Part shown: in pieces, positions 1 through 64,000 of the stretch | How the letters are laid out: each line of letters opens with the position of its first letter | Position numbering within the stretch: position 1 is the stretch's first letter | IMG/VR virus record: IMGVR_UViG_3300026059_000005 | Coordinates: 3,177 to 67,176 of that record | Source of the DNA: a virus | Taxonomy: Duplodnaviria; Caudoviricetes | Length of the DNA: 64,000 nt | Direction: 5' to 3' (one strand) | Position numbers and translations under genes: made by a program | Notes under the pieces: generated by a model | The model's input: the letters and a program-made list of their open reading frames with translations, nothing else | What the model was told of the DNA's origin: nothing | Databases searched by the model: none

Positions 1-3000
1 TCAACGCATCTGAGGCCCATTTCCCCACTTGAGGTTTCCACCGGAAAGCGACCTCGCGGTCTTGTTCGTAGATGGCATCCGCCACGGTTTCAAGGGTCGG
101 GAAAACCGTCGGCTCGGCAGGGTCATCAACATACCTCCAGTCGAATCTCTCAGAACCCCATTGGCCGTACTGCTGCAACCCGGTCGACCAGGAGATGGAT
201 TGATACCCGTTTTCGGCGGCCCACCTGACCATCCTCTTGATGGCCAAAAGGGGCCAGGTCTTTTGGAAGGGCGCTTCCGGAACGCTGGGCCCAAGGTTTG
301 TTTCCAGGTGATTTTGGTTGAAACCTAGCTGGGCGGTTTCGAAGTTGGCATTTTTTTCATGCCAAAATTTAAACGCGTTAACACCCTCGAATGCTTCTTC
401 GATACTGCCGAACAAAGATCGGTAATCGCGCATCCCCTCCATCCCAACATGGCGCGGGCGGATCTCGTCCTGCTGCGTCATGCTCGGATTAAAATAGGCA
501 GTTGCGACAAACCCAGGGCCGTCCTGTTCGATTTTCACGATTACGCGCTTGCCGCCGCCCTTGATGGGAACGCTGAACCTTACCTCGTTGGCGGTAAACA
601 TTGTTTTTTTATCGGTTAGCCCATACATGGGATTCCCGTTGTGGAAATATTCAATGACCAAATTTGGAATGCTGCTAAGCCTGGTCGTGACGATTGCGCC
701 TGGCCCCCTGTACCGCGACTTGCGCCCCTTCTGGTGCCAGTCGCTTTGGATCTCTTCGATGAAGAGCCGGGAGCCTCCGTTCAAATCGGGCCGCTCGGTA
801 AGGCGAACATGGACGACGACATTCTCCTCGTCCCAATGGCTGCGAACGAACTTCTCGCCCAGGCGCTCTTCGGTATCCGCGCCGGGGTCTTTCATGTAAT
901 CCTCGGAATCCGCTTTGTTCCCGGTGAAACGGACAACGCCATTCTGGTTAATGACGTCATACATCGGGTGCCCGATGAAATCGGTTTCTTCCTGGTTGAG
1001 CTCGAGGCGCCAGCCGCGGGGGCTCGGCCGCGGAATGATCAGCAGCAGCTCACGATAGCTGACCGGGGTGTTCATCCCCGAATTGATTCCCTGGATATAA
1101 CCAGCGTACTTGGCAGGGTTGTAAACTTCTTTAAGTTGTTCATTGAGAGTATCCGTAACGTCGCCCATGGCGTCTTCGTAAGCGCTATAACGGGTAGACC
1201 ACGTTTTGGCCACGCCGTCTTTTATTTTGGTCACCGCCCAGGATAGCTCGCCGTAATTCAATTTTGGCTCGATCACAAACAGCCCATCCGGAAGGAGCGC
1301 TGAAAACGTGGGGCCCATGCTGTCGGCCAAATCCCATTCAGCCTCTTCGTAGTTTATGATGGCCTCTCCAAAGCGGTTCCGGAGAGCGTCATCGACAGAT
1401 AGTTGCCCCAGGGTGGCGTTTTTTCGGGCCTCTTTTTTTATGAACTCAACGATTGCCATTTGGTCATCGTCGAGAAGCTGGATGATAATATCTGAACCTT
1501 CTCCGATGTTCATGTATTCCAGTATCGGGTTAGATTTCCCCCAATCAATATAGTGGGTGCCGTCATCCTCTGGCGGCTTAATGTCATATTGCCCGTAAAT
1601 TTCCTTGGGAATGCCCACCTGATGAACCGTTTCCACCACGCGGATGTTGCTGTTTGCCAGGTATTCGAGAATATCCTTGGTGGTCATCTTCTTGCTGGGA
1701 TTCAACGCAATGTATTCGCGCAGTCCGGACCAGTCGACCTCTTCCTCCTTGATATCGCCCTTCTTGGCCCAGGCGTTGACCGCTTTCAAAATCTGGTCCA
1801 CCGGGCCCGCCAGCTTGCGCTCTTTGATCACTTCCTCCATCTGCGAATAGAAGGGGCTCGGTCGCACGTTGCGCATGGAAAACAGCGGCATCCCCATTTG
1901 GACCGACCGCAGCTTGATCTCGGGGGTGATGGCGAACGCCGGGACCGTTTCGAATTTTTCTCCGCCCTCAAGAGGATGTAGCAGCTTGAACGCCTCGGGG
2001 TAATCGCGTTCAATTACTTTGTGAATCAATACCCCATTCAGGTTGCGTCCATTTTCGATCGATTTCGCGAACTCTTTTGCCTCTTTCCAGTTTTCTTTGT
2101 AGGCCGCATCATCGGATGGCTTTCGGTTCATGGCCTCAGAGCGGATGGCGTCGGCGATCTCCGCACGCTCTGTCTGGCTGTAGTCCCATTTGACGAATTC
2201 TTTTTCGCCGATCGGAATCCTGAGGGTTCCCACCCGGGCCTTTCCCCAGGCCGGCCGGTCGAAGAAACGATTCATTTCAGCTGGAAGGATCCGTTCATAA
2301 AAGCCGACCATGCCCTCGCCGCCGATGTCCAGGTCCACGCCCTTGAAGCTTTCGTACCCGGCCTCCACGCCCTTGAGTTTTTCCACCGCTTTTTTGGTGA
2401 GCTCCTTGCCGATGACCCCTTCCATCTTTTCTGGAGTAAGGTTGTCAAAAGTCTTGATAGGATTCAGCGTGCCTTTTTCGTAGGCCCGCACTTCATATCG
2501 GCCGCCTTTATCTTTTCGGACCATCACTTCGCTGATCCGCGTGCTCAACTTGTAGCGGTCGGCCTGCATCTTGCCGGTGGTCCAGGCCACCTGGTCATAT
2601 CCGTTTTCAGCCGCGTAGCGGATAATCCTTTTCATCGCCAACATGGCCCAGCTCCCCGTGTCTTGCACAAAGGGGCCGGCCGGAATGCCACGCCCAAGAT
2701 TCTTATTGTTCTCTGCTTGCAGCTCTCTCAAAACCGCTTGAGCTTCAGGTGTTCCGTTGGTGCCCTCATCAACAAACTTAAACCATTGCGCCTGCAAGGC
2801 AGCTTGTTTGACAGGATCGAAACCTTCTTGCTGGAATCCCTCCTTCCGCCCCTTTTGCCCCCAATCGCTTTGAACCTCCTGCAGGAAAAGGACTTTAATC
2901 GGAGGGGTGTATGGCGTGCCGTCAGCGGATGTGTAACGCTCGTCGAAGCGAATGTGAGCCAGAATATCTGGTTCCTGGTAGTGTGTGGAGCGGAAAGACT

Positions 3001-6000
3001 CTCGGTCTACAAGCTGTTTTTTCTGGTTACTGAGCCGATCAAATTCTGCATCATTACCGCTTTTCGCGGCCTCTTTCATTTTTCGCGTTAGCTCTCTTCT
3101 TTCTGCTTCATAGCTCTTTGCCGGCAACAGCAGCAGCAGCTCCCGGTAGCTTCCTTTTTTACCGCCGGGTATATTCAAATCAGGTGCTTTGTCGGGACCG
3201 AAAACGGCTGAACTTTCATCGCGCCTGACGGTATCGGCCACAATCTCGATCAGCCGCAGATCTTCTTGGGGAACCATTTCGAGCTCTGCAAGATTTGACC
3301 GGTAATCGCTCAGCGCGATGAGGGTGGAGCCGTATTTTCTCGGCAACATAATTTCGTTGGGGTAGGGCTCGCCATCCATGTTCTCCGAATATTCGATGGC
3401 GTAGCCGCGGTCCTCGAGCTCACCGATCGCCTCCTGGGCCGCCGCGATGGATTCCTGATCAAAAGATCCTTTGAGCACCTCCTCCACCCGGATGTTGTTT
3501 GTGGCCAGGTAATCGAGCACCTGGCGCTTGGTGACCTTGCCGGTTTGCTCGGCGGCCCAGTTCTCGATTCCGGACCACATCAGCTCGTCGCGGCTGATCT
3601 GTCCAGACCGGACATAGCTTTCCAGCAGGGGCATCAGATCGCCTGCAGGTACGCGCCCGGGCATCTTGTCCGCGATGTGCGCTTCCATCCGCGAATACCA
3701 GACGGGACCAGGGGCCGACTCTGGCCGGCGCATAGACGCCTTGAGGTCGGGGGTTCTGCCGATCGCCTTGAGGGCCTTACCCATTTCGATCGTACCGCGG
3801 CGGGTGAGCTCGGCGAAATCGGTCCCGGTGTGGTAGGAGCCATGGGCGCAGGTCGACTGGCAGGTTTGACAGGCGTCCTTGCTGGCGGAGATCCCGCAGC
3901 AAAGCGAGGAAGGATCTTTGCGCAAATGGCCGGCGAGAACGCTGAAGATCTTTTCCTGGTCGGCAGGCTTGTAGTTCGCCTTGATGTATTCCTCTACCTT
4001 GGTGTAGGGCTCCGACTCGCCGGCCTCGAGGCTCGCCTTTTCCTTTTGGCGCAGGATCCGCCATTCGCCGTCGACCTTGCGTACCGCGATCTGATACTTG
4101 AAGTTAAGCGCGTTGGCCTGGGTGATTGGAGCCCCTTCGATGTCGGACCACATCCCCGGGCGCAGCTTGGCGTGCATCCAGGTCTGGAGCACCTCCGGCA
4201 TCCGGAGGGCGTATTCGGCGATCTCCTTGGGCGTGGCCACCACGACCCTCGGTAGGAACTTCAGCTTGGGATACTTTTTCGCCAGGCCCTTCAGTTGCTC
4301 CCAGCTGTAGCCGTATTTGCGGAACACCTTCCCGTTGAGAACTTTAGCCTCGCGGTGGAATTCCTTCTTGATGGTGTCGGCCGCGCCCTGCAGGTCGCCG
4401 GCGTTGATCTTGTCGATGACCCCCAGGCGCCGGGTGGCGGAGCCCGCAACGTCGTCCACGCCCATGACCTCGACCCAGTAGGGATCGATGGAGGTCTGGA
4501 TCACGGTGTTCGCCGCGAGCGTGCTGCCGATCTTTTTGGATTTGCGGATCCGGTCGATCACCTCCATGGTGGCGTCCTGCTTGGTGATAACCTTGAGCAT
4601 CAGGCCGCGCATTTCGGCGTGCCGGAATATGTCCGCCCATTGGCCAAAGTCCTGGATCTGCGTGTCGCCCATCCCGTTGACGCGCAGGCCGCCGGCAGCG
4701 TTCAGCCGGGCGACGTCGCCGTCCTTCATCTGCAGGATCTCCGCGGTGTACATGGCGGAGTTATAATAGTTCACGATCTGGCCGGCCTGGGCCAGGCCCA
4801 CCACATAGCACCCGTCGATGTAGCAACCATGAAGGCCGACGGTCATCATGGGGCACATCGTGTTCAGGTTGAGGGCGGCCATGGTCTTGTCGGCTTTGCG
4901 CAGGGGCCGGCCGATGGCGTAGTCCTTCTTGCTCGCCATGTTGGCAAACGTGAGCCCCAGCTCGCCTTTCACGGCAATGGCCGGATCGCTGTAGGCCTCC
5001 TCGATGGAGCGCACGATGGCGCGGCGGAACGATTCCGCGGTGTCGGGATCCGTTGAATGCAGGGCATCAAGATAGGTCTGGGCAAAAGACCGGTAGAACC
5101 CCTTGAACCTCGGGACGATGTCGCCCTTCTTGTTGAACTTGCCCTGGCCGGTGTCGACCTTGGTCCTGGCCTCGATGTCGTCTTTGAGGATGTGGCCGTT
5201 TTTGTCCAGGATCCGCACGCCGGCCCGCCGCTCGATCTGGCGGATCTTCTTGACCATGTAGGGATTGGCGTCCAGCTGGGCGTCGATGTTCTGCCAATGC
5301 TGGGGCGGCCTTCCACCGCCGCCCAGGCCCAGGGCCCGGTCAAGCACGGCCAAAGCGTCGAGGTCGTTTCCGATCGCGATGTCTTCGGCGCTCATCATCC
5401 CGCGCTCGAATGCCCGGTTGATATCCCTCCGGCGCAGGCTGAACGTGCCCTTGAGCTCGGAGATCGAGCGCTTCTCGTCGTTCATCTGGAGGATGGCGGC
5501 GCCTGAATTGCTGAACGGAACAATTACCCTGCCAAGCGTGTTCTTTTCCGTAAGCGATTCTCCAGCCTCCAGGACATCCATCACTCGATTTCCCGCGCTT
5601 ATACCGCCGGCCACCCGGCCGATAAATACGCGCATCTCGGGAGATAGCTTGGTTGGAGAAACAAATATCAAACCGTTGGAGTTGGTGATCTCCATCGCCT
5701 TGACGATTTCGGCGAATGCGTCTAGCTGGGTCAAGTGGCTCAAGTTGTTAAGCCACCCCATGACGTTGTTCTGATTGTCCAGCAGCATGATGCCAGCGGT
5801 GTTGGGGTGGTTATCGGCGAGCCATTTTTTCGCATCGTCCGGTTTGGCCAAATGCGCTCCGACTCCGCTGGACGTCGCCGCCAGGAAGCGTTCCTTCACC
5901 GGGATCTTGAGCGTGCGCACGGTCGGACGGATCGACCGCGGTACCTGAAATTCTTTCGAATGCGAGCTGATGTCGACAAATTTGGAGCCCCCGATCACCA

Positions 6001-8611
6001 GCGAATGGACTCGAATGCCCTCGGCAGCCCCCAGGGCCTCAAGCCTTTGCGCCATTCCGATATCCTCGACGCTGGGCTCAACGCCACCAGACGGGTGGTT
6101 GTGGGCGAAGACAACCGCCTTGGTTCCCGGGGTGTTCCCGGCTCGGCCCATAACCTCAACCGGGTCCACATTGGCCGAATTTTTAGTTCCCTTGCTGTAG
6201 CGATGGATCTCAAGCACGGTCCCATCGCCGCCCAGCATGACGACAAACGCATTCTCCTGGGCCGCTTTACGAATCGGAGCCAGCAGGCTCGCAGCGTCAT
6301 CTACGGACAAGACCACATTGCCGGCCGCGGCGATGTGACCGGTGGTCTGTACCTTGACCCGGAAGATCTTTTCGAGGTTGACCCCTGGGACTTCGGGCGG
6401 TTTCAGGTCAAAGAGCGCGAGCTGCTTTTTCCCGGCCCTCTTCTTGACGCTGAATTTCGGCTCGTCCAGCTCGGTGTCGCGGGCGGCGGCGAGGGCCTCC
6501 GCAAGCTTCATCCCCTTCGCGTCCATCTCGTCGGCGTGCCCCTCGGCCGCCATGACCGCCTCATGCAGGAACTGGGCGCGGTAGGCCTGGGTCATCGCTT
6601 GCTCAAGGGCCTCGAGCTCGGGGGCCTGCGTGAGCTTCTTGGCGCGGTCGTTAATGAGGGTGTACAGCCGGCGCATCTCGTCGACTTGCTCGATCGTGGC
6701 AATCCGGCCGAATGCGATCGCATCGTTGCTGCCGATGAACTCCGGGATCCCCAGCTCGGATTCCACATTCATCCGGACGCTGGCGGTGATGTCGGTCTTG
6801 GTGGGGTCGAACGTCCCGATATTTCCGATCGAGGACTTGATCTGCGTAGGCTCAAAGGGCATGAAATGCACGGCCCCTATGACCCCCTGCATCCCAGGAA
6901 GACGCACGCCCATGGCCCCACGACGCGGCCCAAAGTGCCTTTCGGCGTCCATCACGATACCGTCGTAGCCCAGCTCCTTGACGATATCTTTCAGTATCGC
7001 CCCGCTGGAAATCGAATCGCCGGTGTCGGGATCGACAGGATACAGCTCCGCCAGGACTGCCATGATATCGCCGCCGCCGATCTCGGAGCCATCCACCATC
7101 ATTTCGTAAAGCTTGCCGGCAACGTCGTTGATCTCTCTTTCGGAAACTTCATACCAGCCCAACACCTCGCGTAGCGCCTCAATCAGCTTGACGCCCTCGC
7201 CGCGCTCCTCGACGACCTCTTCGCCGTCCTCGGAATACTCTATTTCAATGCCGATGGGCGTGTAGCTCTTGCCCATGCTCTTAACATCGTCCAGGTAGAA
7301 CGGCTTCTCCATTTTCAGGAAGGCAGGATAGATCGCGCCCTCATGCTTGCCGGCGATCGCGTTTTTGGCGGCCATGGAGATGGCCTCATCCAGATACTCA
7401 TCCCGTAGCTTTTCAAATTCCTCGTCGGTATCGAGCAAATCGTTTACGTCAACATCGCCAAGTATCTCGGGGTTCTCCCAGAAATAATCGCTCAGCAGAT
7501 CGCGCGCTTCATCATTTCCGACGTCGCCATACTTTTCTTTTTCAAGCTCGATCCGGCTGGTAAGGTCAGGGCCCATGCCGGCATAGTTGGCGTTCACATC
7601 GTCATAAGAAGAGGAAAAATAGAACCCCTTTCCCATGTAGTTTCCTACATGACCTCGGGTGTCGCTAAAAGACTTAAAGTCGTGGGTGCTGCCATGGAAC
7701 ACGACCATGGGCTTGCCTTTTTTGTCCACGATCTGGGACTTGCCGAACCACTTCTTGAACGCCTTGGTATTGGTATTGACCGATGCCCGCAGGGGGCGGG
7801 CGCGTACCAGGGTGCCCGGAGTGATCTCCGCCCCCGGCCAATTGCGCCGGGCCCGCTCGAGGGCGTGCTCGTAATTCATGCCCTTGATCGCGTCTATCCA
7901 CTCATCGCCCCCGGGGTATTTCACCGTGACGTTGAGCTCCGCCGGGTACCGGGTTTCCTCGAACCCCTTCTGGTCGCCCGGCTTCCCGAATCCCATGAGG
8001 TTGTCAGGGACGTTCGCATAGGGGCGATTGGGATCCCGGGTGAACCGCGGCTTGGGCTCACGGTACATCGACTCGCGCATGGTGAAATCCTTGCGCCGGC
8101 CCTTGTTTTCGACAAACCCGAAATTCTTGTAGAACTTGACCAGGCGCCTCCTGGAGGTGGTCCCGTGGAAATCGTCCTTCGTCGCCGGGGTCAGGTAGAC
8201 GTACTTGCCATCGCGGTCGGCCAGGTTGACGATGTCCCGCATCACGCTCGAGCCGATCCCACGCCGGCGCTCGCCCTTGGGAACGATGAGCGAGAACAAG
8301 GTGATGCCACCCTTCGAGCTCGGGTGCTGGGTTTCCGACAAGGAAATGGTGACCCCCCGGGCCTCCCACTTGTCCTGGATATCCTGAATGGTATTGAGCT
8401 CCGCCGGCGCCGCGGGGGCCTTCTCCCGGACCTGGCCCTCGATGTCCTTGCGCTCGTCCTTCAGCTGCGCGATGTAGTCCTTGACCGCCTCGACGGCGGC
8501 CTTATGAGCTTCGTATCCTTCGGCCCGGTAGTCTTTCACCGCGCCGTTGATGATCGCTTGCTCATGCGCTTCGAGGCCTATCTTGGAAAGGCATTTTTTA
8601 AGGGAGCTCAT
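1..8611 (-). CDS. Giant polyvalent (ejection/internal virion) protein, N-terminal >2870 aa, runs off the left edge. Domains: GNAT, ART, JAB x2, radical-SAM-like, QSDW domain x2
   Basis: Not in the ORF track. ATG at 8611 overlaps the upstream stop (TGATG). Manual translation in the frame with codon starts = 1 mod 3 was open at all segments checked down to base 2. Motifs: ERRRGIGSSVM...LVKFYKNFGF (GNAT); KWFGKSQIVDKKGKPMVVFHGS...GKGFYFS...QIKSSIGNIGTFD (ART); QEN...AHNHPSGGVEPSVED (JAMM); CPMMTVGLHGCYIDGCY; LQEVQSDWGQKGR and IEEIQSDWHQKGR. Confidence 0.9.
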   Translation of the reverse strand, partial: MSSLKKCLSKIGLEAHEQAIINGAVKDYRAEGYEAHKAAVEAVKDYIAQLKDERKDIEGQVREKAPAAPAELNTIQDIQDKWEARGVTISLSETQHPSSKGGITLFSLIVPKGERRRGIGSSVMRDIVNLADRDGKYVYLTPATKDDFHGTTSRRRLVKFYKNFGFVENKGRRKDFTMRESMYREPKPRFTRDPNRPYANVPDNLMGFGKPGDQKGFEETRYPAELNVTVKYPGGDEWIDAIKGMNYEHALERARRNWPGAEITPGTLVRARPLRASVNTNTKAFKKWFGKSQIVDKKGKPMVVFHGSTHDFKSFSDTRGHVGNYMGKGFYFSSSYDDVNANYAGMGPDLTSRIELEKEKYGDVGNDEARDLLSDYFWENPEILGDVDVNDLLDTDEEFEKLRDEYLDEAISMAAKNAIAGKHEGAIYPAFLKMEKPFYLDDVKSMGKSYTPIGIEIEYSEDGEEVVEERGEGVKLIEALREVLGWYEVSEREINDVAGKLYEMMVDGSEIGGGDIMAVLAELYPVDPDTGDSISSGAILKDIVKELGYDGIVMDAERHFGPRRGAMGVRLPGMQGVIGAVHFMPFEPTQIKSSIGNIGTFDPTKTDITASVRMNVESELGIPEFIGSNDAIAFGRIATIEQVDEMRRLYTLINDRAKKLTQAPELEALEQAMTQAYRAQFLHEAVMAAEGHADEMDAKGMKLAEALAAARDTELDEPKFSVKKRAGKKQLALFDLKPPEVPGVNLEKIFRVKVQTTGHIAAAGNVVLSVDDAASLLAPIRKAAQENAFVVMLGGDGTVLEIHRYSKGTKNSANVDPVEVMGRAGNTPGTKAVVFAHNHPSGGVEPSVEDIGMAQRLEALGAAEGIRVHSLVIGGSKFVDISSHSKEFQVPRSIRPTVRTLKIPVKERFLAATSSGVGAHLAKPDDAKKWLADNHPNTAGIMLLDNQNNVMGWLNNLSHLTQLDAFAEIVKAMEITNSNGLIFVSPTKLSPEMRVFIGRVAGGISAGNRVMDVLEAGESLTEKNTLGRVIVPFSNSGAAILQMNDEKRSISELKGTFSLRRRDINRAFERGMMSAEDIAIGNDLDALAVLDRALGLGGGGRPPQHWQNIDAQLDANPYMVKKIRQIERRAGVRILDKNGHILKDDIEARTKVDTGQGKFNKKGDIVPRFKGFYRSFAQTYLDALHSTDPDTAESFRRAIVRSIEEAYSDPAIAVKGELGLTFANMASKKDYAIGRPLRKADKTMAALNLNTMCPMMTVGLHGCYIDGCYVVGLAQAGQIVNYYNSAMYTAEILQMKDGDVARLNAAGGLRVNGMGDTQIQDFGQWADIFRHAEMRGLMLKVITKQDATMEVIDRIRKSKKIGSTLAANTVIQTSIDPYWVEVMGVDDVAGSATRRLGVIDKINAGDLQGAADTIKKEFHREAKVLNGKVFRKYGYSWEQLKGLAKKYPKLKFLPRVVVATPKEIAEYALRMPEVLQTWMHAKLRPGMWSDIEGAPITQANALNFKYQIAVRKVDGEWRILRQKEKASLEAGESEPYTKVEEYIKANYKPADQEKIFSVLAGHLRKDPSSLCCGISASKDACQTCQSTCAHGSYHTGTDFAELTRRGTIEMGKALKAIGRTPDLKASMRRPESAPGPVWYSRMEAHIADKMPGRVPAGDLMPLLESYVRSGQISRDELMWSGIENWAAEQTGKVTKRQVLDYLATNNIRVEEVLKGSFDQESIAAAQEAIGELEDRGYAIEYSENMDGEPYPNEIMLPRKYGSTLIALSDYRSNLAELEMVPQEDLRLIEIVADTVRRDESSAVFGPDKAPDLNIPGGKKGSYRELLLLLPAKSYEAERRELTRKMKEAAKSGNDAEFDRLSNQKKQLVDRESFRSTHYQEPDILAHIRFDERYTSADGTPYTPPIKVLFLQEVQSDWGQKGRKEGFQQEGFDPVKQAALQAQWFKFVDEGTNGTPEAQAVLRELQAENNKNLGRGIPAGPFVQDTGSWAMLAMKRIIRYAAENGYDQVAWTTGKMQADRYKLSTRISEVMVRKDKGGRYEVRAYEKGTLNPIKTFDNLTPEKMEGVIGKELTKKAVEKLKGVEAGYESFKGVDLDIGGEGMVGFYERILPAEMNRFFDRPAWGKARVGTLRIPIGEKEFVKWDYSQTERAEIADAIRSEAMNRKPSDDAAYKENWKEAKEFAKSIENGRNLNGVLIHKVIERDYPEAFKLLHPLEGGEKFETVPAFAITPEIKLRSVQMGMPLFSMRNVRPSPFYSQMEEVIKERKLAGPVDQILKAVNAWAKKGDIKEEEVDWSGLREYIALNPSKKMTTKDILEYLANSNIRVVETVHQVGIPKEIYGQYDIKPPEDDGTHYIDWGKSNPILEYMNIGEGSDIIIQLLDDDQMAIVEFIKKEARKNATLGQLSVDDALRNRFGEAIINYEEAEWDLADSMGPTFSALLPDGLFVIEPKLNYGELSWAVTKIKDGVAKTWSTRYSAYEDAMGDVTDTLNEQLKEVYNPAKYAGYIQGINSGMNTPVSYRELLLIIPRPSPRGWRLELNQEETDFIGHPMYDVINQNGVVRFTGNKADSEDYMKDPGADTEERLGEKFVRSHWDEENVVVHVRLTERPDLNGGSRLFIEEIQSDWHQKGRKSRYRGPGAIVTTRLSSIPNLVIEYFHNGNPMYGLTDKKTMFTANEVRFSVPIKGGGKRVIVKIEQDGPGFVATAYFNPSMTQQDEIRPRHVGMEGMRDYRSLFGSIEEAFEGVNAFKFWHEKNANFETAQLGFNQNHLETNLGPSVPEAPFQKTWPLLAIKRMVRWAAENGYQSISWSTGLQQYGQWGSERFDWRYVDDPAEPTVFPTLETVADAIYEQDREVAFRWKPQVGKWASDAL

Positions 8612-13682: not shown

Positions 13683-14090
13683 TTATTTTTTTTCAACATG
13701 GGCGGCCAGGGATATGATCCGCCCCCAGGCGTCACGCTCGGTGACCCGCAGCTGGATGTCCTGGATGACCTCGGTCTTAAAGGTCGGAATCTCCCGCCGC
13801 GATTCGACGATGGCGGCGGTCAGGTTCTCCATGGTCTGCTGGGTCAAGTACTGGATTTCGGCGATCCTGTCTATCAGGACTTCATTGCTGGGGGGCGCAA
13901 TCGCCTGCCGCTCCAGCATGGCCTTGGTCAGGGTGTGAAGATCGACCAGCCGCTTGATGGCGCCGGTGATCTCCTTGAGGACGTCGGCCACCTCGTTCCT
14001 GGCGACCTTTTCCACCTCGGCCTTGACCGCGGCCTTCTTGATCAGTTGGACGCCGGCGTCAATGTCGGCTTTCGTTAGCTGTTTAGGCAT
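13683..14090 (-). CDS. Hypothetical helical protein
   Basis: 135 aa ORF, coupled to the upstream ejection gene. Confidence 0.65.
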   Translation of the reverse strand: MPKQLTKADIDAGVQLIKKAAVKAEVEKVARNEVADVLKEITGAIKRLVDLHTLTKAMLERQAIAPPSNEVLIDRIAEIQYLTQQTMENLTAAIVESRREIPTFKTEVIQDIQLRVTERDAWGRIISLAAHVEKK

Positions 14091-17000
14091 TCGAGTAACC
14101 TCTCCGCGAAGTCCATCTGCTTATCGTTTTCGGCGATCGCCTCGCTGGCCTTTGATTTCACCCGGGCGATATTGCCTTCCGCATCCATGGCGGTGACCTC
14201 GATCTCGACATCCTTGCGCTTCAGGCTCGCCCGCATCTGGCTTTCGGCCTCCGGCTTCCCGCCGCGCACGCCCTCTACAAAGACCTGGTCAAACGGCTCC
14301 AGCTTGAGATCCTCTTTCCCCTGCAGGAGGATAAAGCCGTCGCTGGTCCACCCGGCCTGCTGGTAGCGCTTGCCGTCGATCTGGACTTCCTGGCCCTCGA
14401 GAAAGTCGCCGGCGACCTGGCGGTCCATCACCACCTGCCACCCCTCATCCTCGAGGTTCTTGATCGTTTCCTGGGCATCGCGCATCCGCGCCATCTCGGG
14501 GTCGGTGTCTTGGACCTCGAGCATGACGTCGATCAGCTCGCGAAATCTCCAGTACTGTTTGAAGGTGAGCTTCTTGCCGGTTTCGACGTTCCGGACGATG
14601 GCGTCGAATTCCTTCCGGGACCATTGCCCGCCTTTCATCCCGAACCATTTGGGATAGGTCGTTCCGACGATGTGATTCAACCCGGGCTCGCGCCCGCCGC
14701 GCTCGACCATTCCCTGGTGGACCTGGGTCTTGATGTAATCCCAGGCGTCCAGGAGCTCGTCCGGGACCACCACCGCGCCCTTGTTCGCCTTCCGGTACGC
14801 GGATACCTCCGAAAGTAGGCGCTCAGAGTCATCAGCGATCGATGCCTTGAGCTCCTCGGTTTTCCCAGGCTCACCTACAGGCCCCTCGGAGATCTCCTCG
14901 CCTTGGGCCTCTGGTGCGGTCGCTTTTTTGGCTTTCTTGGCTTTTTTGGCCTGAGAGGCAATTTCGGCCTTCAGGAGGCCCACCTTCTCAGCTGAGCTCA
15001 TCTCGTCGTCGGTCGGCAGATCGGCCAGGCGTTTCTTTTCCGCAGCCGGCAGGTTGCCCCAGAGGTGATCGAACTCCTGCTGGGGGGTCATCTTTTTCTT
15101 GGCCGGCTTTTCGGCCGGCTCTTCGGCGGGCGCCTCGAGGTCGATATCCTGCCACTCGGATCCCTCCCCTGCCACCACCGGGCTCGCTTGGGAGGGTGTC
15201 ACCTTCGTAGTGACCTTAGTCCCTATGGTTTTCGCCTCGGCAGCAGCAGGGGAGAGAGCGGTGCCAACGGCCTCGACCACCTTCTGGCCAACGGTCTTTT
15301 CAACCGGCTGGACAGTTTGGTCGACCACCGTTTTGCGCCGGGCGAACTCCACATAGACGCCGGCGAGAGCGTCCTGGACCTGATCCAGCTCTTTAACGAA
15401 TTCCTTGTCGGCGGAATCCTTGCGCAGGCCCAGGGCCGATTTGATCTTTTCCACCAGGTCGAAAACATACCGGGCCAGCTTTTGCCCCAGGGTGGGATCG
15501 GCCGCGTTGACCTTTTCCCAGAAAGCCTTTTCCTTGAACTGGGATCCGGCGAAATCGGCGATGAACTCCTCGCGGGTGAGGGCCTCCTCCCGGGTTAGCT
15601 CCTGGACGCCGGCCTCCTTGCGGATGTCGTTCTGCTTGGCGAGCCAGGCGTCGAACCCCACCTCGTTGCCCTGGATCAGCGTGGCGATTTTGCCGTAAAG
15701 ATCGGGTGCCTCGCTCTTTATCTGATGCAGGGTTTCGTGCCCCAGCACGACCGCGAACGGGTCCGCGGAATTCTCGTTGATGAAGACGGTATTGCTCCCC
15801 TCGTCGTACAGGCCATTGAAAGAGTTGGAAGCCCCCTCGCCCTTGAAGAAAACGACTTTGGCCCCCAGGGCCTGGCCAATCTGCTGGACCATCCCCATGC
15901 CTTCGCCGCCCCTGGCCTCGCTGACAGCAACCTCCTCGCCTGCAGGAAGGGCGTCCTTCAGGTGGACCGACAGATAGGACTTGAGGGTGGCCAGGTCTTC
16001 AGGGGTGGCCGCGGTGTAGGTAGACGGCCCGGCGACCTCGAGCTCGCCGCCGGCCGCCAGGATCATCTCCTCCATGCGCGGGATGATCGGATTGTCGGGC
16101 CATTGCTCCCGGGCCTTGTTGAGCGTGCTCTGGATCTCATTGACCGAAATCGCGCCGGTTTCCAGGCCGGCCTCCATGGCATCGGCCGTCTTTTCGTAAA
16201 TCGGCAAAAGGATCTCGGTGAACTTCTGAGCGTCCTTAACGCTTTTGACGCTGCGACCGACATGGATCGCGGGACCGCCTACCCCCAGGAGCGCCATGCC
16301 AGATGCGACTTTCTTGGCGACCTCTTTCAGCTGGTCGGCCGTTTCCTCGGATCCCAAGGCCTCGATCACGTTCTCGTTGTTCATTATCGCCTTGGTGATG
16401 ATCCCCGGGAGCTCCTGCATCACCTCAGTCCCGGTTTCGCCGCCGACTCCAATGATATAGTCCTTCGCCGCTTCCAGTATTTTTTCGCGCAAAATCTTGC
16501 TCGATTTCACAAACGGCCGGATGCCGCCCTTGGTCACGCCCTTCAGGCCCGGGACCAACTTCAGGGCCGCCTCGAACCCAACCATTTCGAAGGCGCCGTC
16601 AATGGCTCCGATTATGTCGGCCGCGACCGCCTTGGTCTGGACATCCCATTTGTTCTCGGTGTCCTCCTCCATTAACTCCTTGAAAGCGAGGCCGCCCTCG
16701 ACCGCCTTGGATCTGCGATAATACTGCATCCGCATTGCCATACCGCCGGCCGCTGCCATAGCGGCTGGTATGGTAATCGGAGCCAGCGGACCAGACACAA
16801 CACCCGCGGCGACCCCAGCCCCAACGACCCCAGCTGCCAGGGCCGCATAGCCGCCGGTCAGGTACGGGTTCATCTGATCATCCATGAGCTGGTTGACCTG
16901 CTGGCCGATGAGCTCCCCCGCAGCGGGAAGCATACTGGAAAGACCCTCCTCCGTAGAATTGTAACCCATAACCTTGTCGAGGATGTCCAGGTACTTCAGC

Positions 17001-17695
17001 TCTTCCGGCGTGAGGTCTTTGCCGGCAACCATGGCCTGGCGGCGCTTCTCCCAGAGCATCCCGGCCCGGTCCATGGCCGCACCGGAAAGCGCGTCCTTGA
17101 CCGTGTCGCTTTCAAGCCAGCTGTCGGGTATGGCGCCGTGCGCCACGATCCTCATGTAGTTGGAGGCCTCCTCGTTCTGGCGCTCCTGCTGGGCTTTCTT
17201 TTCAGCCGCCTTCAGGGCCGCGGCGGCTTCTTGCTCCGGAGTCATGGCCGGCTTTTTTCTGCGCTTCGCAAGATTATGAAGGCTCTTCATGCCACCCGGG
17301 ATCGGCGGCGTGAAAGCTTCCTCGCCCTCATCGGGGGCGTTCAGGTCAAGCGTTTCCCACTCCTCCTCCGCGGGCGCTTCCTTTTTGGCAGCTGGGGTTT
17401 CAGCCGGAGCCGGCTCGCCGGTCTTGGTATCGATTCCGCCGACAAAACGATTCGGGTGATCATCGGACTTGAAACGCGAATCCCAATGATACTTACCGTC
17501 CTCCTCGTTGTACTCGGGCTCGACGCCGGCCCTGAAGGCCGCCCGGTAGTCGTACATATGCCGGGGGTCGTCCGGGTTGGGATCGAGCCCGGTCGTGTCG
17601 GCTACCCTGGTGTACCAGTCCCGAAACTCGGGCTCGTCATCAGGGCCGTCCGCTTCGAGATCGATCTCTTCCCAGTCAGCTTCGGCGCCGTTCAT
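14075..17695 (-). CDS. Large internal virion/ejection protein with a zincin-like HExxH domain
   Basis: 1206 aa. Hydrophobic Gly/Ala segment (GGYAALAAGVVGAGVAAG) typical of ejection proteins. FNGLYDEGSNTVFINENSADPFAVVLGHETLH...EEFIAD matches the polyvalent-protein metallopeptidase (MPTase) pattern. Confidence 0.8.
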   Translation of the reverse strand: MNGAEADWEEIDLEADGPDDEPEFRDWYTRVADTTGLDPNPDDPRHMYDYRAAFRAGVEPEYNEEDGKYHWDSRFKSDDHPNRFVGGIDTKTGEPAPAETPAAKKEAPAEEEWETLDLNAPDEGEEAFTPPIPGGMKSLHNLAKRRKKPAMTPEQEAAAALKAAEKKAQQERQNEEASNYMRIVAHGAIPDSWLESDTVKDALSGAAMDRAGMLWEKRRQAMVAGKDLTPEELKYLDILDKVMGYNSTEEGLSSMLPAAGELIGQQVNQLMDDQMNPYLTGGYAALAAGVVGAGVAAGVVSGPLAPITIPAAMAAAGGMAMRMQYYRRSKAVEGGLAFKELMEEDTENKWDVQTKAVAADIIGAIDGAFEMVGFEAALKLVPGLKGVTKGGIRPFVKSSKILREKILEAAKDYIIGVGGETGTEVMQELPGIITKAIMNNENVIEALGSEETADQLKEVAKKVASGMALLGVGGPAIHVGRSVKSVKDAQKFTEILLPIYEKTADAMEAGLETGAISVNEIQSTLNKAREQWPDNPIIPRMEEMILAAGGELEVAGPSTYTAATPEDLATLKSYLSVHLKDALPAGEEVAVSEARGGEGMGMVQQIGQALGAKVVFFKGEGASNSFNGLYDEGSNTVFINENSADPFAVVLGHETLHQIKSEAPDLYGKIATLIQGNEVGFDAWLAKQNDIRKEAGVQELTREEALTREEFIADFAGSQFKEKAFWEKVNAADPTLGQKLARYVFDLVEKIKSALGLRKDSADKEFVKELDQVQDALAGVYVEFARRKTVVDQTVQPVEKTVGQKVVEAVGTALSPAAAEAKTIGTKVTTKVTPSQASPVVAGEGSEWQDIDLEAPAEEPAEKPAKKKMTPQQEFDHLWGNLPAAEKKRLADLPTDDEMSSAEKVGLLKAEIASQAKKAKKAKKATAPEAQGEEISEGPVGEPGKTEELKASIADDSERLLSEVSAYRKANKGAVVVPDELLDAWDYIKTQVHQGMVERGGREPGLNHIVGTTYPKWFGMKGGQWSRKEFDAIVRNVETGKKLTFKQYWRFRELIDVMLEVQDTDPEMARMRDAQETIKNLEDEGWQVVMDRQVAGDFLEGQEVQIDGKRYQQAGWTSDGFILLQGKEDLKLEPFDQVFVEGVRGGKPEAESQMRASLKRKDVEIEVTAMDAEGNIARVKSKASEAIAENDKQMDFAERLLECLNS

Positions 17696-19712: not shown

Positions 19713-20255
19713 CTATTTTCCGCAACCGCCGTTTGGTCTTGCCGCAGCAGCTTGCGCCTTGTGTCGTGACCGCCTTCTTTCCATCCTCATGCTACGCGGA
19801 ACTAAGCGCATCGAAGCCCGTTTCAGTCTTCGTTTCATATCATTTTTAAACCCACCCGGAGGCAACTCTTTAACCTGTTGCGCCAGCTCTTTTTCGTAGG
19901 GCAATTCCGAATAGAGCTCATATCCACAATTCATGCCATCCATGCAAAACCAAAGCGAACGATACTTCTGGTCAACCTGGGAGCATGGCCGGTCGTTGAC
20001 CTCTACAAGTTTAAGAAAGTTACCGCAATCAGGGCATCGCCGTGAGCCCATCCGAACATCATCGCGTATTTTCTTCATGCGGGTCAGATGGTCCTGATGT
20101 CCGTTTCTTAAATCCTTGAACCATTGATCCGCGTACCCCAACAATTCGGCAACGGTGCAACCGTTGCGCTCCATTTCCTTCAAGATCGTAACCATGTCTT
20201 GAATCTGGCCCAGGGGATAATTTTCGAAAACCCACTTTGGAAAATTTTCGCTCAC
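19713..20255 (-). CDS. Zinc-ribbon protein
   Basis: CPDCG...WFC.DG.NCG; GTG start overlaps the upstream stop (GTGA). Confidence 0.6.
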   Translation of the reverse strand: MSENFPKWVFENYPLGQIQDMVTILKEMERNGCTVAELLGYADQWFKDLRNGHQDHLTRMKKIRDDVRMGSRRCPDCGNFLKLVEVNDRPCSQVDQKYRSLWFCMDGMNCGYELYSELPYEKELAQQVKELPPGGFKNDMKRRLKRASMRLVPRSMRMERRRSRHKAQAAAARPNGGCGK

Positions 20256-21592
20256 GATGAACACACCCATTCAAAAAGAATCGGTTCGCTATTTCCCTCG
20301 CACCAAATATGCATATACATCCCTTCCGGGCACATCGTGCAAGGACCGCCCCAATCTTCAACGATACAATGATTGTTAATCACGCAATTATAACCGGACC
20401 AAATATCAATTATGTTGGCGCATCCCCAGGTCGGATCGGCGGGATACCCCGTACACATGGCCTCGCAATCTCCGCAACCCATACTATTTGGGCAACCATG
20501 CTCCCCGCCGGTCAAGACAAAGCAATGCCGCACTTTCCATTTCCCAGCCACGCGCTCATGTGTTGGAAGGCTACAAAAACCTAACGCATACGGGTCGCGG
20601 GCGGTGGGAGGCCCAGGGATCATGTTTTCGAAAGGATACCTTTCTAACCAATAGCTTCTGTTGGTGGTTCTTATTTCATAAGTGTCGGAAAGGCCGCATG
20701 AGTCAGTAACCGCGATAGAGCCTACACCGCAAGCGTTTATTGTTCTAACGAAATTTACCCTCGAGGTGGTTTTGGTAACAGGAAAAGAAAACCCCTCGCC
20801 GCTGACCGACCATGTGAATGGCGGGGTTCCCGTTCCTTCCTCTAAAAAAAGAGCGGCGTCGGTCCAGCCCCCCATTGTTTCAGGTGAGCTATCAAGATCA
20901 AATTGAGGCGCGATCGATTCATCGGTGCAAGTCGCCACGGTGAGATCGGTCGAGCATGAAGACCCGGAGGCGGTGTACGCGATCAGGACCACATACAGCT
21001 CGCCGGTTCTCGGGTTGGCTTCGTATCCAGAAATATCGTCGTTCACCCGAATGATTACCGTGCATTCTGGTACGTTGCCGTAGGGGATGCCGCCTTTGGC
21101 CAGATACATCTGGTACGACTTGTTGTTGCACCCGGAGGCCACATAAGGCGGCTTGACAAAGGTCGCCGGCCCCTGGAGCTCCATCCGGATGATCTGATCA
21201 TCGCCCATCGCTAAGCGGGCGTAAGCGGTTTGCCCCGGGCGCGCCAAGCTCGGCGTGAGCGGTTGCCTGAAGAAACATCCCAAGAACTCACGGTTAGGAT
21301 CATCCGGATTATATTCATGCGGAATGATTGGGCCCCCGGGATCAAGCGGATCAACTTGAACCGGAGTGTCCGGGAGCTGGGGCCAGACCGGGTTCCACGG
21401 CGGCCAGTCGTAGCCCTCCATCTCAGGGTATTCCAAATCGTCGCGGTACGGCTGTTTGTACTCGGAATGCTTCCGCCACTTATTGGCGTGGAAGTCCGAT
21501 GCAAGGCGCTTTTGCTCGGAGTAGCTGCGCTTGCTGATGTACATCCGGCGGCCGTAGTCCCTGCCGCCTGTTGTGTCCTTAGGATCAGCCAT
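20252..21592 (-). CDS. Cys-rich tail-associated protein
   Basis: 446 aa with 20 Cys, 13 of them in the last 107 aa; Ig-like-looking middle. Confidence 0.65.
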   Translation of the reverse strand: MADPKDTTGGRDYGRRMYISKRSYSEQKRLASDFHANKWRKHSEYKQPYRDDLEYPEMEGYDWPPWNPVWPQLPDTPVQVDPLDPGGPIIPHEYNPDDPNREFLGCFFRQPLTPSLARPGQTAYARLAMGDDQIIRMELQGPATFVKPPYVASGCNNKSYQMYLAKGGIPYGNVPECTVIIRVNDDISGYEANPRTGELYVVLIAYTASGSSCSTDLTVATCTDESIAPQFDLDSSPETMGGWTDAALFLEEGTGTPPFTWSVSGEGFSFPVTKTTSRVNFVRTINACGVGSIAVTDSCGLSDTYEIRTTNRSYWLERYPFENMIPGPPTARDPYALGFCSLPTHERVAGKWKVRHCFVLTGGEHGCPNSMGCGDCEAMCTGYPADPTWGCANIIDIWSGYNCVINNHCIVEDWGGPCTMCPEGMYMHIWCEGNSEPILFEWVCSS

Positions 21593-44986: not shown

Positions 44987-45550
44987 TCACCTCCTTTCGT
45001 AAGATGCCATGGGCAATTCGATTGCGTTGAGCTCCTCGAGGGTCGCCGGCAAGATGCCCTCGAACACGGTGATCCACTCGCGGTAGTGCTGGATCACATC
45101 GGTGACATGGTCAGGGTTGACCCCCTTCCAATACTCAAACAGCCCTGCGCCCACTAAGAACTTAGCGGCGAGCTCAGAGCACACCGCAAATTTCCCGGTG
45201 GCGAAATACTTGGCCAGCGGCGGGATGAGGTTGAGCGGCAGGCGGTGGAACGGATACCAGCGACCCTCGAGATCGGAAACCTTATCCCAGCCGGCCTGGT
45301 AGCGCTCCTTGGTCATCAACAGGTTGCGCCCGATCAGGATCTTCTTGCCGGCGTAGGAATTGAATAGGCCGTTGCGGCGGATTGTCCAGAGGGCTTCGAA
45401 CGTCGTCGCGGTGGGGCCCAGGATGATGCCAGAGTGTGAGTATTCGGCCCGGTTGTCGGTCGCGTTGAAGCGCTCGACTGCCATGATGGCCTTGCCCAGC
45501 CACATGGGGTTGGCCGTACAGAAGATGTCACCGGCCTGCAGGATCGGCAT
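44987..45550 (-). CDS. Permuted papain-like NlpC/P60 enzyme (YaeF/YiiX type)
   Basis: LQAGDIF...YSHSGII...FEAL...AVCSELAA; His precedes Cys (permuted order). Confidence 0.8.
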   Translation of the reverse strand: MPILQAGDIFCTANPMWLGKAIMAVERFNATDNRAEYSHSGIILGPTATTFEALWTIRRNGLFNSYAGKKILIGRNLLMTKERYQAGWDKVSDLEGRWYPFHRLPLNLIPPLAKYFATGKFAVCSELAAKFLVGAGLFEYWKGVNPDHVTDVIQHYREWITVFEGILPATLEELNAIELPMASYERR

Positions 45551-63146: not shown

Positions 63147-64000
63147 CTACTTCAGTAGTTTGATGCCTTCCCTAAGGGTCATGCCGGTATCCTCTTCCTC
63201 CGGCGGCTCCTGATTGATCATGGCCTTGGCCGCCTCGCGGGTTTCGCCGCGGTACGTCCGGTTGTACCACTCCTCGGCCAGCTGCAAGCGGTAGAGCTCC
63301 TCCTCGCTCAAGGTTTCCTTGAACTTGGCCTGATCCTTTTTGGCGAGCTGTCCCAGGGGGTGGGCCCGCTTGATGGCGCCGATCTCCGCCTTCTCCGTTC
63401 CGCCCAGGTCGCGGTACCGCTGCAGGTATTTGGCCGCGGCCTTGATGTCGCCAAACTTCAAGGCCTGCTTGTAATAGTACATGGCATCGGCCTTGTCCTT
63501 TGGATCCGGCCCGGCGTCCTGTTTGTAATCGGACACGATCCGCGTCACATCGTAATAGGCCATCTCCCCGGGGTCCGATGTGTAGGTCAGCAGGCCCGCC
63601 AGGTCGTTAAATATTTGTTTGTAGATGTCGTCGCCACGCTTGGGGCGGCCGGCCGCCCAGTTGTAAACGCTTCCCAGGCTGAAAGTGCGTGCAATGTATT
63701 CAACCCGGTCCCGGATTGTCCGCGGATGGAACGGATCCGGGTAGAACGATTTGCCGCTCAAGAGCTCGGCAAATGCCTTGACGTCAGGCCTGACTGCGCC
63801 GATGACCTTCTTGGGGGTGGCCAGCAGCATATCTTTGGCCTGGTCGCTGATCGACTTCTTGCCGGCGATCATCTTGGTGACATCGGCCACCGCGGTTTCC
63901 AGGCCGAACCAGGAGAGCGCATCGGAGAACGCCCCCTGCAGGCGCATGGTGATGATGCTGCCATCCTCGCGCCGGCCAAGTATCAGATGCATCTGATACT
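63147..64000 (-). CDS. C-terminal part of a large polyvalent/ejection protein (runs in from the right edge)
   Basis: Frame is open from the window edge (xYQMHLILGRREDG...GAFSDALSWFGL...PDPFHPRTIRDR..YIA..FSL). This resembles the helical C-terminal (LPD38-like) region of large polyvalent proteins. Confidence 0.75.
   Translation of the reverse strand, partial: YQMHLILGRREDGSIITMRLQGAFSDALSWFGLETAVADVTKMIAGKKSISDQAKDMLLATPKKVIGAVRPDVKAFAELLSGKSFYPDPFHPRTIRDRVEYIARTFSLGSVYNWAAGRPKRGDDIYKQIFNDLAGLLTYTSDPGEMAYYDVTRIVSDYKQDAGPDPKDKADAMYYYKQALKFGDIKAAAKYLQRYRDLGGTEKAEIGAIKRAHPLGQLAKKDQAKFKETLSEEELYRLQLAEEWYNRTYRGETREAAKAMINQEPPEEEDTGMTLREGIKLLK

Follow-up and report, generated by a model that had tools for sequence, protein, structure and literature searches.

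A short peptide recurs at the module borders of a giant phage polyvalent protein and may be a cutting signal for a zincin-like domain of a neighbouring virion protein

The stretch of DNA analysed in this study (the window) comprises 64,000 nucleotides, positions 3,177 to 67,176 of the virus record IMGVR_UViG_3300026059_000005 (Duplodnaviria; Caudoviricetes), which is a single contig of 67,176 nucleotides. Since the two ends of this contig overlap by about 108 nucleotides, the phage genome is circular, with a length of 67,063 nucleotides. The subjects of the analysis are a giant gene on the minus strand, a short peptide motif that recurs at the joints between the modules of its product, and a neighbouring gene for a 1206-amino-acid (aa) ejection-type virion protein. 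The giant open reading frame (ORF) runs from window position 8611 to position 2 and continues past the window edge. Read across the circular contig junction, the frame is unbroken and ends at window position 63147, giving a protein of 4,175 residues, of which residues 2871-3929 are encoded beyond the window (G000:C1:1-3177). What looks like a separate 281-aa "ORF" near the other window edge is in fact the C-terminal part of this protein. The giant gene is located downstream of, and on the same strand as, the genes for the terminase, portal, major head protein, SU10-type adaptor and fibre. The parts of the giant gene and the copies of the motif that lie in the window are as follows.

2..8611, minus strand: giant protein, residues 1-2870 (from the ORF and its translation, Pfam and 120 polyvalent homologues)
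63147..63887, minus strand: last 246 residues of the giant protein and the stop codon (from the terminal overlap and the continuous frame)
7775..7786, minus strand: motif copy ASVN, residues 276-279, between the N-terminal/GNAT module and the ART module
6773..6784, minus strand: motif copy ASVR, residues 610-613, at the end of the ART tail FDPTKTDIT-AS
6443..6454, minus strand: motif copy FSVK, residues 720-723, between the helical mini-module and the JAB module
5432..5443, minus strand: motif copy FSLR, residues 1057-1060, between the JAB module and the Cys-rich module
3728..3739, minus strand: motif copy ASMR, residues 1625-1628, between the Cys-rich module and QSDW1
1871..1882, minus strand: motif copy FSMR, residues 2244-2247, between QSDW1 and QSDW2, at the tail GMPLFS

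The giant protein consists of seven motif-delimited modules and shows module-wise homology to 120 polyvalent proteins. The order over residues 1-2870 is an N-terminal module with a weak GNAT match, ART-PolyVal, a helical mini-module, RadC-JAB, a Cys-rich module, QSDW1 and the start of QSDW2. Pfam matched ART-PolyVal (PF18760, 1e-16, 62 bits against a cut-off of 31) and RadC (PF04002, 2.4e-17), with only a weak match to GNAT. Three features characteristic of the polyvalent class were thus found together, namely unrelated domains in one chain, the ART-PolyVal signature and a late, virion-type gene setting. The best explanation of the giant gene product is that it is a phage polyvalent cargo protein, composed of a string of effector modules followed by a conserved C-terminal module of 1,079 residues. 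Packaging of the protein in the virion and its delivery into the host are predicted by likeness to gp47 of phage phi24B.

The strict motif, [FA]-S-[VLM]-[RKN], was defined after inspection of the data. The initial annotation, made from the letters of the window, had listed six copies in the giant ORF, one at each domain boundary, as a possible polyprotein processing code. All six were recovered in frame and on the minus strand exactly where it had placed them, with the first base of the [FA] codon at window positions 7786, 6784, 6454, 5443, 3739 and 1882, which correspond to residues 276, 610, 720, 1057, 1625 and 2244. A seventh copy, PLFSMR (FSMR, residues 3097-3100), lies just beyond the window and precedes the C-terminal 1,079-aa module. 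All seven joints of the giant protein therefore carry the motif, which is rare elsewhere, and the claim of a copy at each boundary was borne out. The comparison with shuffled sequence that had been proposed as a check gave the same picture: the 2,870 residues in the window hold six copies against 0.54 expected from composition, a count that none of 5000 shuffles reached, and the full 4,175-aa protein holds seven against 0.79 expected. The remaining approximately 17,250 residues encoded in the window contain two strict copies against 3.1 expected, which is no enrichment. The annotation had also held the motif to be not fully specific because of an internal match, VRFSVP; this peptide has proline at position 4 and does not fit the pattern, and no strict copy outside a junction was found in the giant protein.

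A peptide RASMR in a 185-aa zinc-ribbon protein was considered as a third substrate and rejected, as it reads RAARR in the sister phage L005 and is probably a chance match. This protein (window 19713-20270) is itself conserved in L005; its zinc ribbon consists of two CxxC pairs, its tail is very basic, and GGCGK is conserved at its C-terminus.

Because the motif had been defined post hoc, the real test lies in other sequences and in joints that are absent from the window phage. Module borders were located independently of the motif, from the ends of BLAST high-scoring segment pairs of 118 distant, motif-free homologues; these starts and ends clustered within about 10 residues of sites 276, 610, 1625, 2244 and 3097. 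Moreover, when the four giant proteins of the clade were divided at the motif, the pieces aligned end to end with their counterparts. For the relatives a relaxed motif was used, in which leucine or tyrosine was allowed at position 1 and isoleucine at position 3. With this pattern, every joint of the four clade giants and of the related protein P0128 carries the motif, so that conservation at the boundaries of homologues, a further check suggested at the outset, was found as predicted. Examples of the relaxed form are LSVK (S3:471), FSIK (S4:883) and, ahead of the Cys-rich module of P0128, YSLK; the only internal strict copies in the relatives are at P0002:3114 and P0128:4946. Among the 120 homologues, the motif was enriched only in the two closest, P0002 (9 copies against 0.82 expected) and P0003 (7 against 0.74), and the other 118 jointly contained 66 copies against about 80 expected. 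Similarly, of 95 more giant proteins that were retrieved by way of the Cys-rich module, only the closest, P0128, was enriched (9 against 0.78).

The joints of cassettes that the window phage lacks gave a consistent result. All seven such joints carry the motif (as listed: S2 276/441; S3 315, 471 and 571; S4 356; and 648 and 832 of the ejection protein of L004). An additional 165-aa module of P0002 is flanked by two ASVK copies and a 271-aa module unique to P0003 by two FSVK copies, and a fourth phage, L006, has an additional ART-like insert that ends in ASLK. Furthermore, the L004 orthologue of the 1206-aa ejection protein (L004:1-3415) contains two additional cassettes at its motif point, each bracketed by the motif; one of these is an ART-PolyVal domain between ASVK and ASMK, and the giant protein of L004 has no ART. 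Modules are thus exchanged at the motif, including between the two virion carrier proteins.

Two modules of the giant protein merit separate description. The Cys-rich module, called radical-SAM-like by the initial annotation (window 3740-5443, residues 1057-1624), matches no Pfam family. It has 125 relatives among 1.84 billion representatives, nearly all of them internal to proteins of 1,500-5,900 aa, and the short matches resemble contig fragments; the module appears to be a dedicated polyvalent-protein module. The motif-free C-terminal module (residues 3097-4175, 1,079 aa; G000:C1:1-2499 plus window 63147-63887) is the best-conserved part of the protein, with 49-57% identity over its full length in the sister phages, 46% in P0128 and E = 0 against P0017. 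It is a candidate for a structural or anchor part of the cargo chain. Over the last 1,300 residues, Pfam detected neither LPD38 nor any other LPD family (E <= 0.1). A search for cultured relatives gave no megablast match and none in the phage collection, with only matches of about 25% identity to actinophages for the capsid protein and no match for the C-terminal module. In addition, no further clade member could be confirmed from a scan of viral contigs with the QSDW region or of metagenome contigs with the Cys-rich alignment.

The sharpness of conservation at the motif bears on the level at which selection acts. In motif-anchored orthologous pairs, positions 0 ([F/A]) and 1 (S) were 100% identical, the flanking positions -12 to -3 were only 15-37% identical, and position +4, mostly arginine, reached 81% pairwise identity. 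The serine is encoded by both TCN and AGY codons, the phenylalanine and alanine codons share nothing, and the linker around the motif contains indels. This codon diversity, together with the sharp conservation of two residues, indicates that selection acts on the peptide and not on the DNA. Codon diversity likewise ruled out a DNA repeat or recombination handle and excluded an RNA element at the motif. An internal translation start at position 3 (V/L/M) was also rejected, given that the valine codon is mostly GTC, the commonest valine codon of the gene, and that no start-codon pattern was seen. The initial annotation had offered "recombination-friendly module ends" as an alternative, and half of this idea held, as the gain, loss and transfer of modules all take place precisely at the motif; read as DNA homology, it is contradicted by the differing codons. 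It could still be argued that the motif is a historical scar or handle of cassette shuffling whose peptide has no function, much as conserved junctions are known in the genes of polymorphic toxins, and the insertion, deletion and movement of cassettes at precisely this point fits such a view. However, the DNA itself is not conserved, as serine switches between TCN and AGY, the Phe and Ala codons are unrelated and the flanks diverge with indels; four codons are too short for homologous recombination; and a peak of complete conservation confined to two residues is the mark of peptide selection. We therefore regard a functionless scar as very improbable.

The gene that lies near the giant gene and shares its motif encodes the 1206-aa ejection-type protein, with the following features.

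14075..17695, minus strand: 1206-aa ejection-type virion protein, with a candidate protease and one junction motif
14219..14230, minus strand: junction motif ASLK, residues 1156-1159 of the 1206-aa protein, conserved in 4/4 phages of the clade
15206..16033, minus strand: zincin-like metallopeptidase domain, residues about 555-830 (from the family alignment, an AlphaFold2 model and fold matches)

The MRASLK peptide that had been noticed in this protein was confirmed at window position 14230, residue 1156, about 50 residues before the C-terminus. The HExxH motif reported at 15725-15739 was also confirmed and reads HETLH. An invariant glutamate, Glu710 (15566-15568), follows 53 residues downstream of the second histidine, and H653, E654, H657 and E710 are invariant in 21 family sequences, which is the gluzincin signature. 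The family is found inside 17/121 polyvalent proteins of the homologue set and in 30/95 long proteins of the set found through the Cys-rich module. In the AlphaFold2 model of the domain, built from a 10-sequence alignment (predicted template modelling score 0.61; core predicted local distance difference test, pLDDT, 65-89), HExxH lies in helix 108-123 after a small sheet and the glutamate lies in helix 171-180. Foldseek with this model gave no match at E <= 1e-3, and its top rows were almost all zincins. The best hit of the aligner (VIA) was the catalytic domain of lethal factor (Z 5.2, 148 residues, root-mean-square deviation 4.4), with PPEP-1/3 next (best Z range 4.6-5.2), followed by IrrE/PprI, ArdC, CapP and Ste24. 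A profile search of the PDB returned only insignificant rows for IrrE and BaP1, and the Atlas returned LPD23/LPD1-like clusters. A zincin fold is thus probable on the model, and the HExxH domain, one of three proteases proposed by the initial annotation, is well supported as a zincin-like metallopeptidase by its invariant H/E/H/Glu residues and by the zincins at the top of the matches, its peptidase activity being predicted.

Two contextual observations favour this domain as the enzyme that reads the motif. First, 87/121 polyvalent homologues contain HExxH in cis (109 copies against 6.8 expected), and the three full-length giants of the window clade contain none. Second, P0128 (5140 aa) is a natural fusion in which a cargo chain punctuated by FSVK is joined to domains of both window proteins, namely the N-terminal domain of the 1206-aa protein (63% identity), the zincin domain (41%; hidden Markov model E 6e-51) and the C-terminal module of the giant protein (46%). 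As judged from these alignments, P0128 is a Rosetta-stone link between the giant gene and the 1206-aa gene. In the 1206-aa protein, the N-terminal domain covers residues about 15-97 (window 17404-17650) and has the core DPNPD-x-P-x-H-x-YDYRAA-x-RAG. The same domain was found at 53-68% identity in the otherwise unrelated large proteins P0125, P0126 (with LPD38) and P0128, and it may be a virion-targeting or docking module.

The other two proteases that had been proposed fared less well, and their positions are given below.

5981..6301, minus strand: RadC-like JAB domain, residues 771-877 of the giant protein (PF04002, 2.4e-17; AlphaFold2 core pLDDT 55-84)
44987..45550, minus strand: 187-aa permuted papain-like amidase of the C92/NlpC-P60 type (from the Atlas score and the structural template modelling, TM, score)

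The JAB domain is an ordinary RadC-type module, and nothing ties it to the motif. The 187-aa protein, proposed as a permuted papain protease, resembles an amidase of the C92/NlpC-P60 type (Atlas feature score 0.96-0.97; TM 0.73-0.74 to Peptidase_C92 clusters; no Pfam or PHROG match) and is more likely a cell-wall hydrolase than the junction protease; it is probably a lysis or cell-wall enzyme, though its gene is upstream of the terminase gene. Pfam and PHROGs named no protease anywhere in the phage; a prohead protease could not be recognised either, and the full-length alignment of the capsid protein shows neither a propeptide nor a delta domain. These results also bear on the view that the motif is cut by another enzyme, a host protease or an unrecognised phage protease, and that the zincin has a different job on host proteins or the cell wall. 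The link between the zincin and the motif is contextual, and a cell-wall role was suggested by the authors of the phi24B study for the metallopeptidase domain of gp47 (bioRxiv 10.64898/2026.04.10.717836). Furthermore, P0062 and P0030 carry junction dialects of their own and have no zincin of this type within 10 kb. Nevertheless, this view has to contend with a phage in which no other protease, prohead protease or capsid delta domain was detected by these searches, and with the P0128 fusion and the lack of a cis-HExxH in the giants of this clade only, both of which point to the zincin. Cutting by some other enzyme is therefore considered improbable.

The junction peptide has counterparts in more distant polyvalent proteins. 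Related tails occur at the same joints, N-x-G-x-F-D-P-x-N-P-D-I-[RL]-[FY]-S after ART and E-G-M-P-L-F-[SQ] after QSDW. When over-represented tripeptides were sought in individual proteins without bias, junction peptides ranked at the top, with LFQ nine times in P0006, FSP seven times in P0008, FSV six times in P0003 and YSR six times in P0030. The contexts are [VI]LFQ[DEN] in P0006, [FVL]LYSRA[AP] in P0030, [RL]FSP[AP]R in P0008 and [VIP]RFSK[RKQ]P, nine times, in P0062. The generic pattern [ILVMP]x[FY][SQ] was not enriched over all homologues (623 against 634 expected), which suggests that junction peptides are a feature of particular lineages and not universal; P[ILVM][FY][SQ] was enriched (60 against 21). 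The motif [FA]S[VLM][RK] is the dialect of one clade within a wider family of polyvalent-protein junction tails. Neither a junction motif nor measured processing of a polyvalent protein was found in the searchable literature, and a text search of the 2017 paper on polyvalent proteins (PMC5512222) gave no junction or cleavage motif of any kind.

Taken together, these data lead to a model in which x-[F/A]-S-[V/L/M]-[K/R]-(R) would be the junction peptide of this clade, separating effector modules that fold independently. The same peptide stands between six unrelated module families and changes as a set from lineage to lineage, which argues for one trans-acting reader. Such a common reader may recognise the peptide at the protein level, and it is most likely the gluzincin-type domain of the 1206-aa protein, which is favoured by the P0128 fusion and by the lack of HExxH in the giants of the clade. 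In this model the zincin would cut at or beside the invariant [F/A]-S. It would shorten the protein that carries it by about 50 C-terminal residues and set the cargo modules free as individual proteins, in the filled capsid or once they have been injected. That a cut happens, which bond is cut, by which enzyme and at what time are all points that we infer. Cutting of the motif by some protease, whether the zincin or another, is slightly favoured on balance. The narrower proposal, that the motif is a cutting signal for the zincin of the neighbouring protein, is plausible, with somewhat less than an even chance of being right. It is suggested more tentatively still that polyvalent proteins in general are effector polyproteins with a lineage-specific junction code, here cut in trans by a zincin on a separate ejection protein.

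Several observations weigh against this model. N4 vRNAP, ArdC and TraC1 are delivered uncut (PMC5512222). P0062 and P0030 have strong dialects but no zincin of this type within 10 kb, although HExxH modules of other kinds are present in them. With Z about 5 and Foldseek E > 0.09, the match to a zincin fold is only middling, and no Pfam (E <= 0.1), PHROG or PDB sequence match names the domain. The AlphaFold2 model of giant residues 540-1120, from a 4-sequence alignment, is of low confidence (mean pLDDT 49.6); in it, sites 610, 720 and 1057 fall in segments of pLDDT of about 30-37 between better-modelled cores, so exposure of the motif sites is weakly supported. The composition of the motif flanks is only mildly linker-like (P 0.02-0.16). 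Lastly, parts of the motif, in the ART tail ...DI-x-[F/A]-S and the QSDW tail GMPLFS, accompany the preceding module in distant lineages and could be structural tails.

The last point also speaks for an uncleaved junction element, which would either be bound by a common partner (the capsid interior, the portal or ejection machinery, or a chaperone) or cap the upstream module, the protein being delivered whole like N4 vRNAP. The tails ...FDPxxxDI-x-[F/A]-S (ART) and EGMPLFS (QSDW) are co-inherited with their modules in distant lineages. Residues just past the motif are sometimes well conserved (FSLRRxDIxRAFERG is invariant at several positions), ASV at site 610 forms a short strand in the AlphaFold2 model, at low confidence, and there is precedent in the several polyvalent proteins known to be delivered uncut (PMC5512222). 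On the other hand, one peptide on six unrelated module families, replaced by other dialects in other lineages, speaks for a trans-acting reader and not for the needs of a fold; alternation of Phe and Ala is odd for a packing residue; and the last module neither needs nor has a motif. A binding partner is compatible with all of these counterpoints. An uncleaved element is judged rather unlikely but is a serious competitor of the model.

The invariance of the serine permits a further explanation, in which this residue is modified, by phosphorylation or ADP-ribosylation, or in which the chain cleaves itself by an N-to-O acyl shift, like the HF|S site of Nup98 and PIDD. The serine is the only strictly invariant residue, Phe often stands before it and basic residues after it, and the giant protein has an ART module of its own. 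However, self-cleavage of this kind needs a dedicated surrounding fold, and the flanks here are unrelated modules; moreover, other dialects have Gln in place of Ser (LFQ), and no kinase was found. This explanation is the least probable of those considered.

If cleavage by the zincin is correct, any cassette placed between two code peptides, in either carrier, would be packaged, injected and freed, so that the cargo would be plug-and-play and the code and its protease would co-evolve. Few unexplored proteins of phages and plasmids are as large or as common as polyvalent proteins, and the cutting of these proteins into separate effectors has been proposed since 2017. The present locus offers precisely placed candidate sites in which [F/A]-S is invariant, a candidate enzyme whose catalytic residues are identified, and a natural fusion that joins both. 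Should the code prove real, one could predict the mature products of thousands of giant ORFs from metagenomes. It would also explain how anti-defence cargo is swapped without disturbing packaging, and it could serve for the modular loading of proteins into phage particles.

The findings can be compared with several known systems. Iyer, Burroughs, Anand, de Souza and Aravind (2017, J Bacteriol; PMC5512222) predicted that zincin-like metallopeptidases (MPTases) process polyvalent proteins, and the processing of P1 DdrB before packaging is cited in the same paper. The giant protein resembles the proteins described there in being a giant multi-effector chain encoded among late virion genes, in combining ART-PolyVal with RadC-JAB and in having a zincin tied to the cargo chain. 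It differs in that a defined peptide is present at every joint and that the zincin is on a separate neighbouring protein instead of the same chain; neither MPTase-PolyVal nor LPD38 was found by Pfam in the giant or the 1206-aa protein. The gp47 protein of phi24B, a podovirus-type phage with a very large LPD-type protein, was detected in virions by proteomics and is absent from the cryo-EM map, and its ejection was proposed (bioRxiv 10.64898/2026.04.10.717836). The likeness lies in the type of phage and the size of the protein. Neither processing nor a junction motif was reported for gp47.

A similar logic is known from MARTX toxins and viral polyproteins, in which modules are separated by short lineage-specific linker sites that are cut by an encoded protease after delivery. 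Several effector modules in one chain and recurring short sites at the joints are common to these systems and the giant protein. The candidate here is a zincin, in contrast to the cysteine protease domain or 3C/NS3-type enzyme of those systems, the delivery route is different, and cleavage, which has been demonstrated there, is inferred here. Head proteases also recognise short motifs, L/I-x-E for T4 gp21 and S/A/G-x-E for the phiKZ type. As in these head-protease systems and P1 DdrB, where trimming takes place and cargo is injected with the DNA, a short motif is common to more than one protein that would be packaged. In the window phage, however, no prohead protease or capsid propeptide is detectable, the motif is unrelated, and the sites stand between whole enzyme modules and would not remove targeting peptides. 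The novelty of the present locus therefore lies in the dialect and in the arrangement, with a candidate protease in trans, two carrier proteins and one fused relative, of a known kind of protein.

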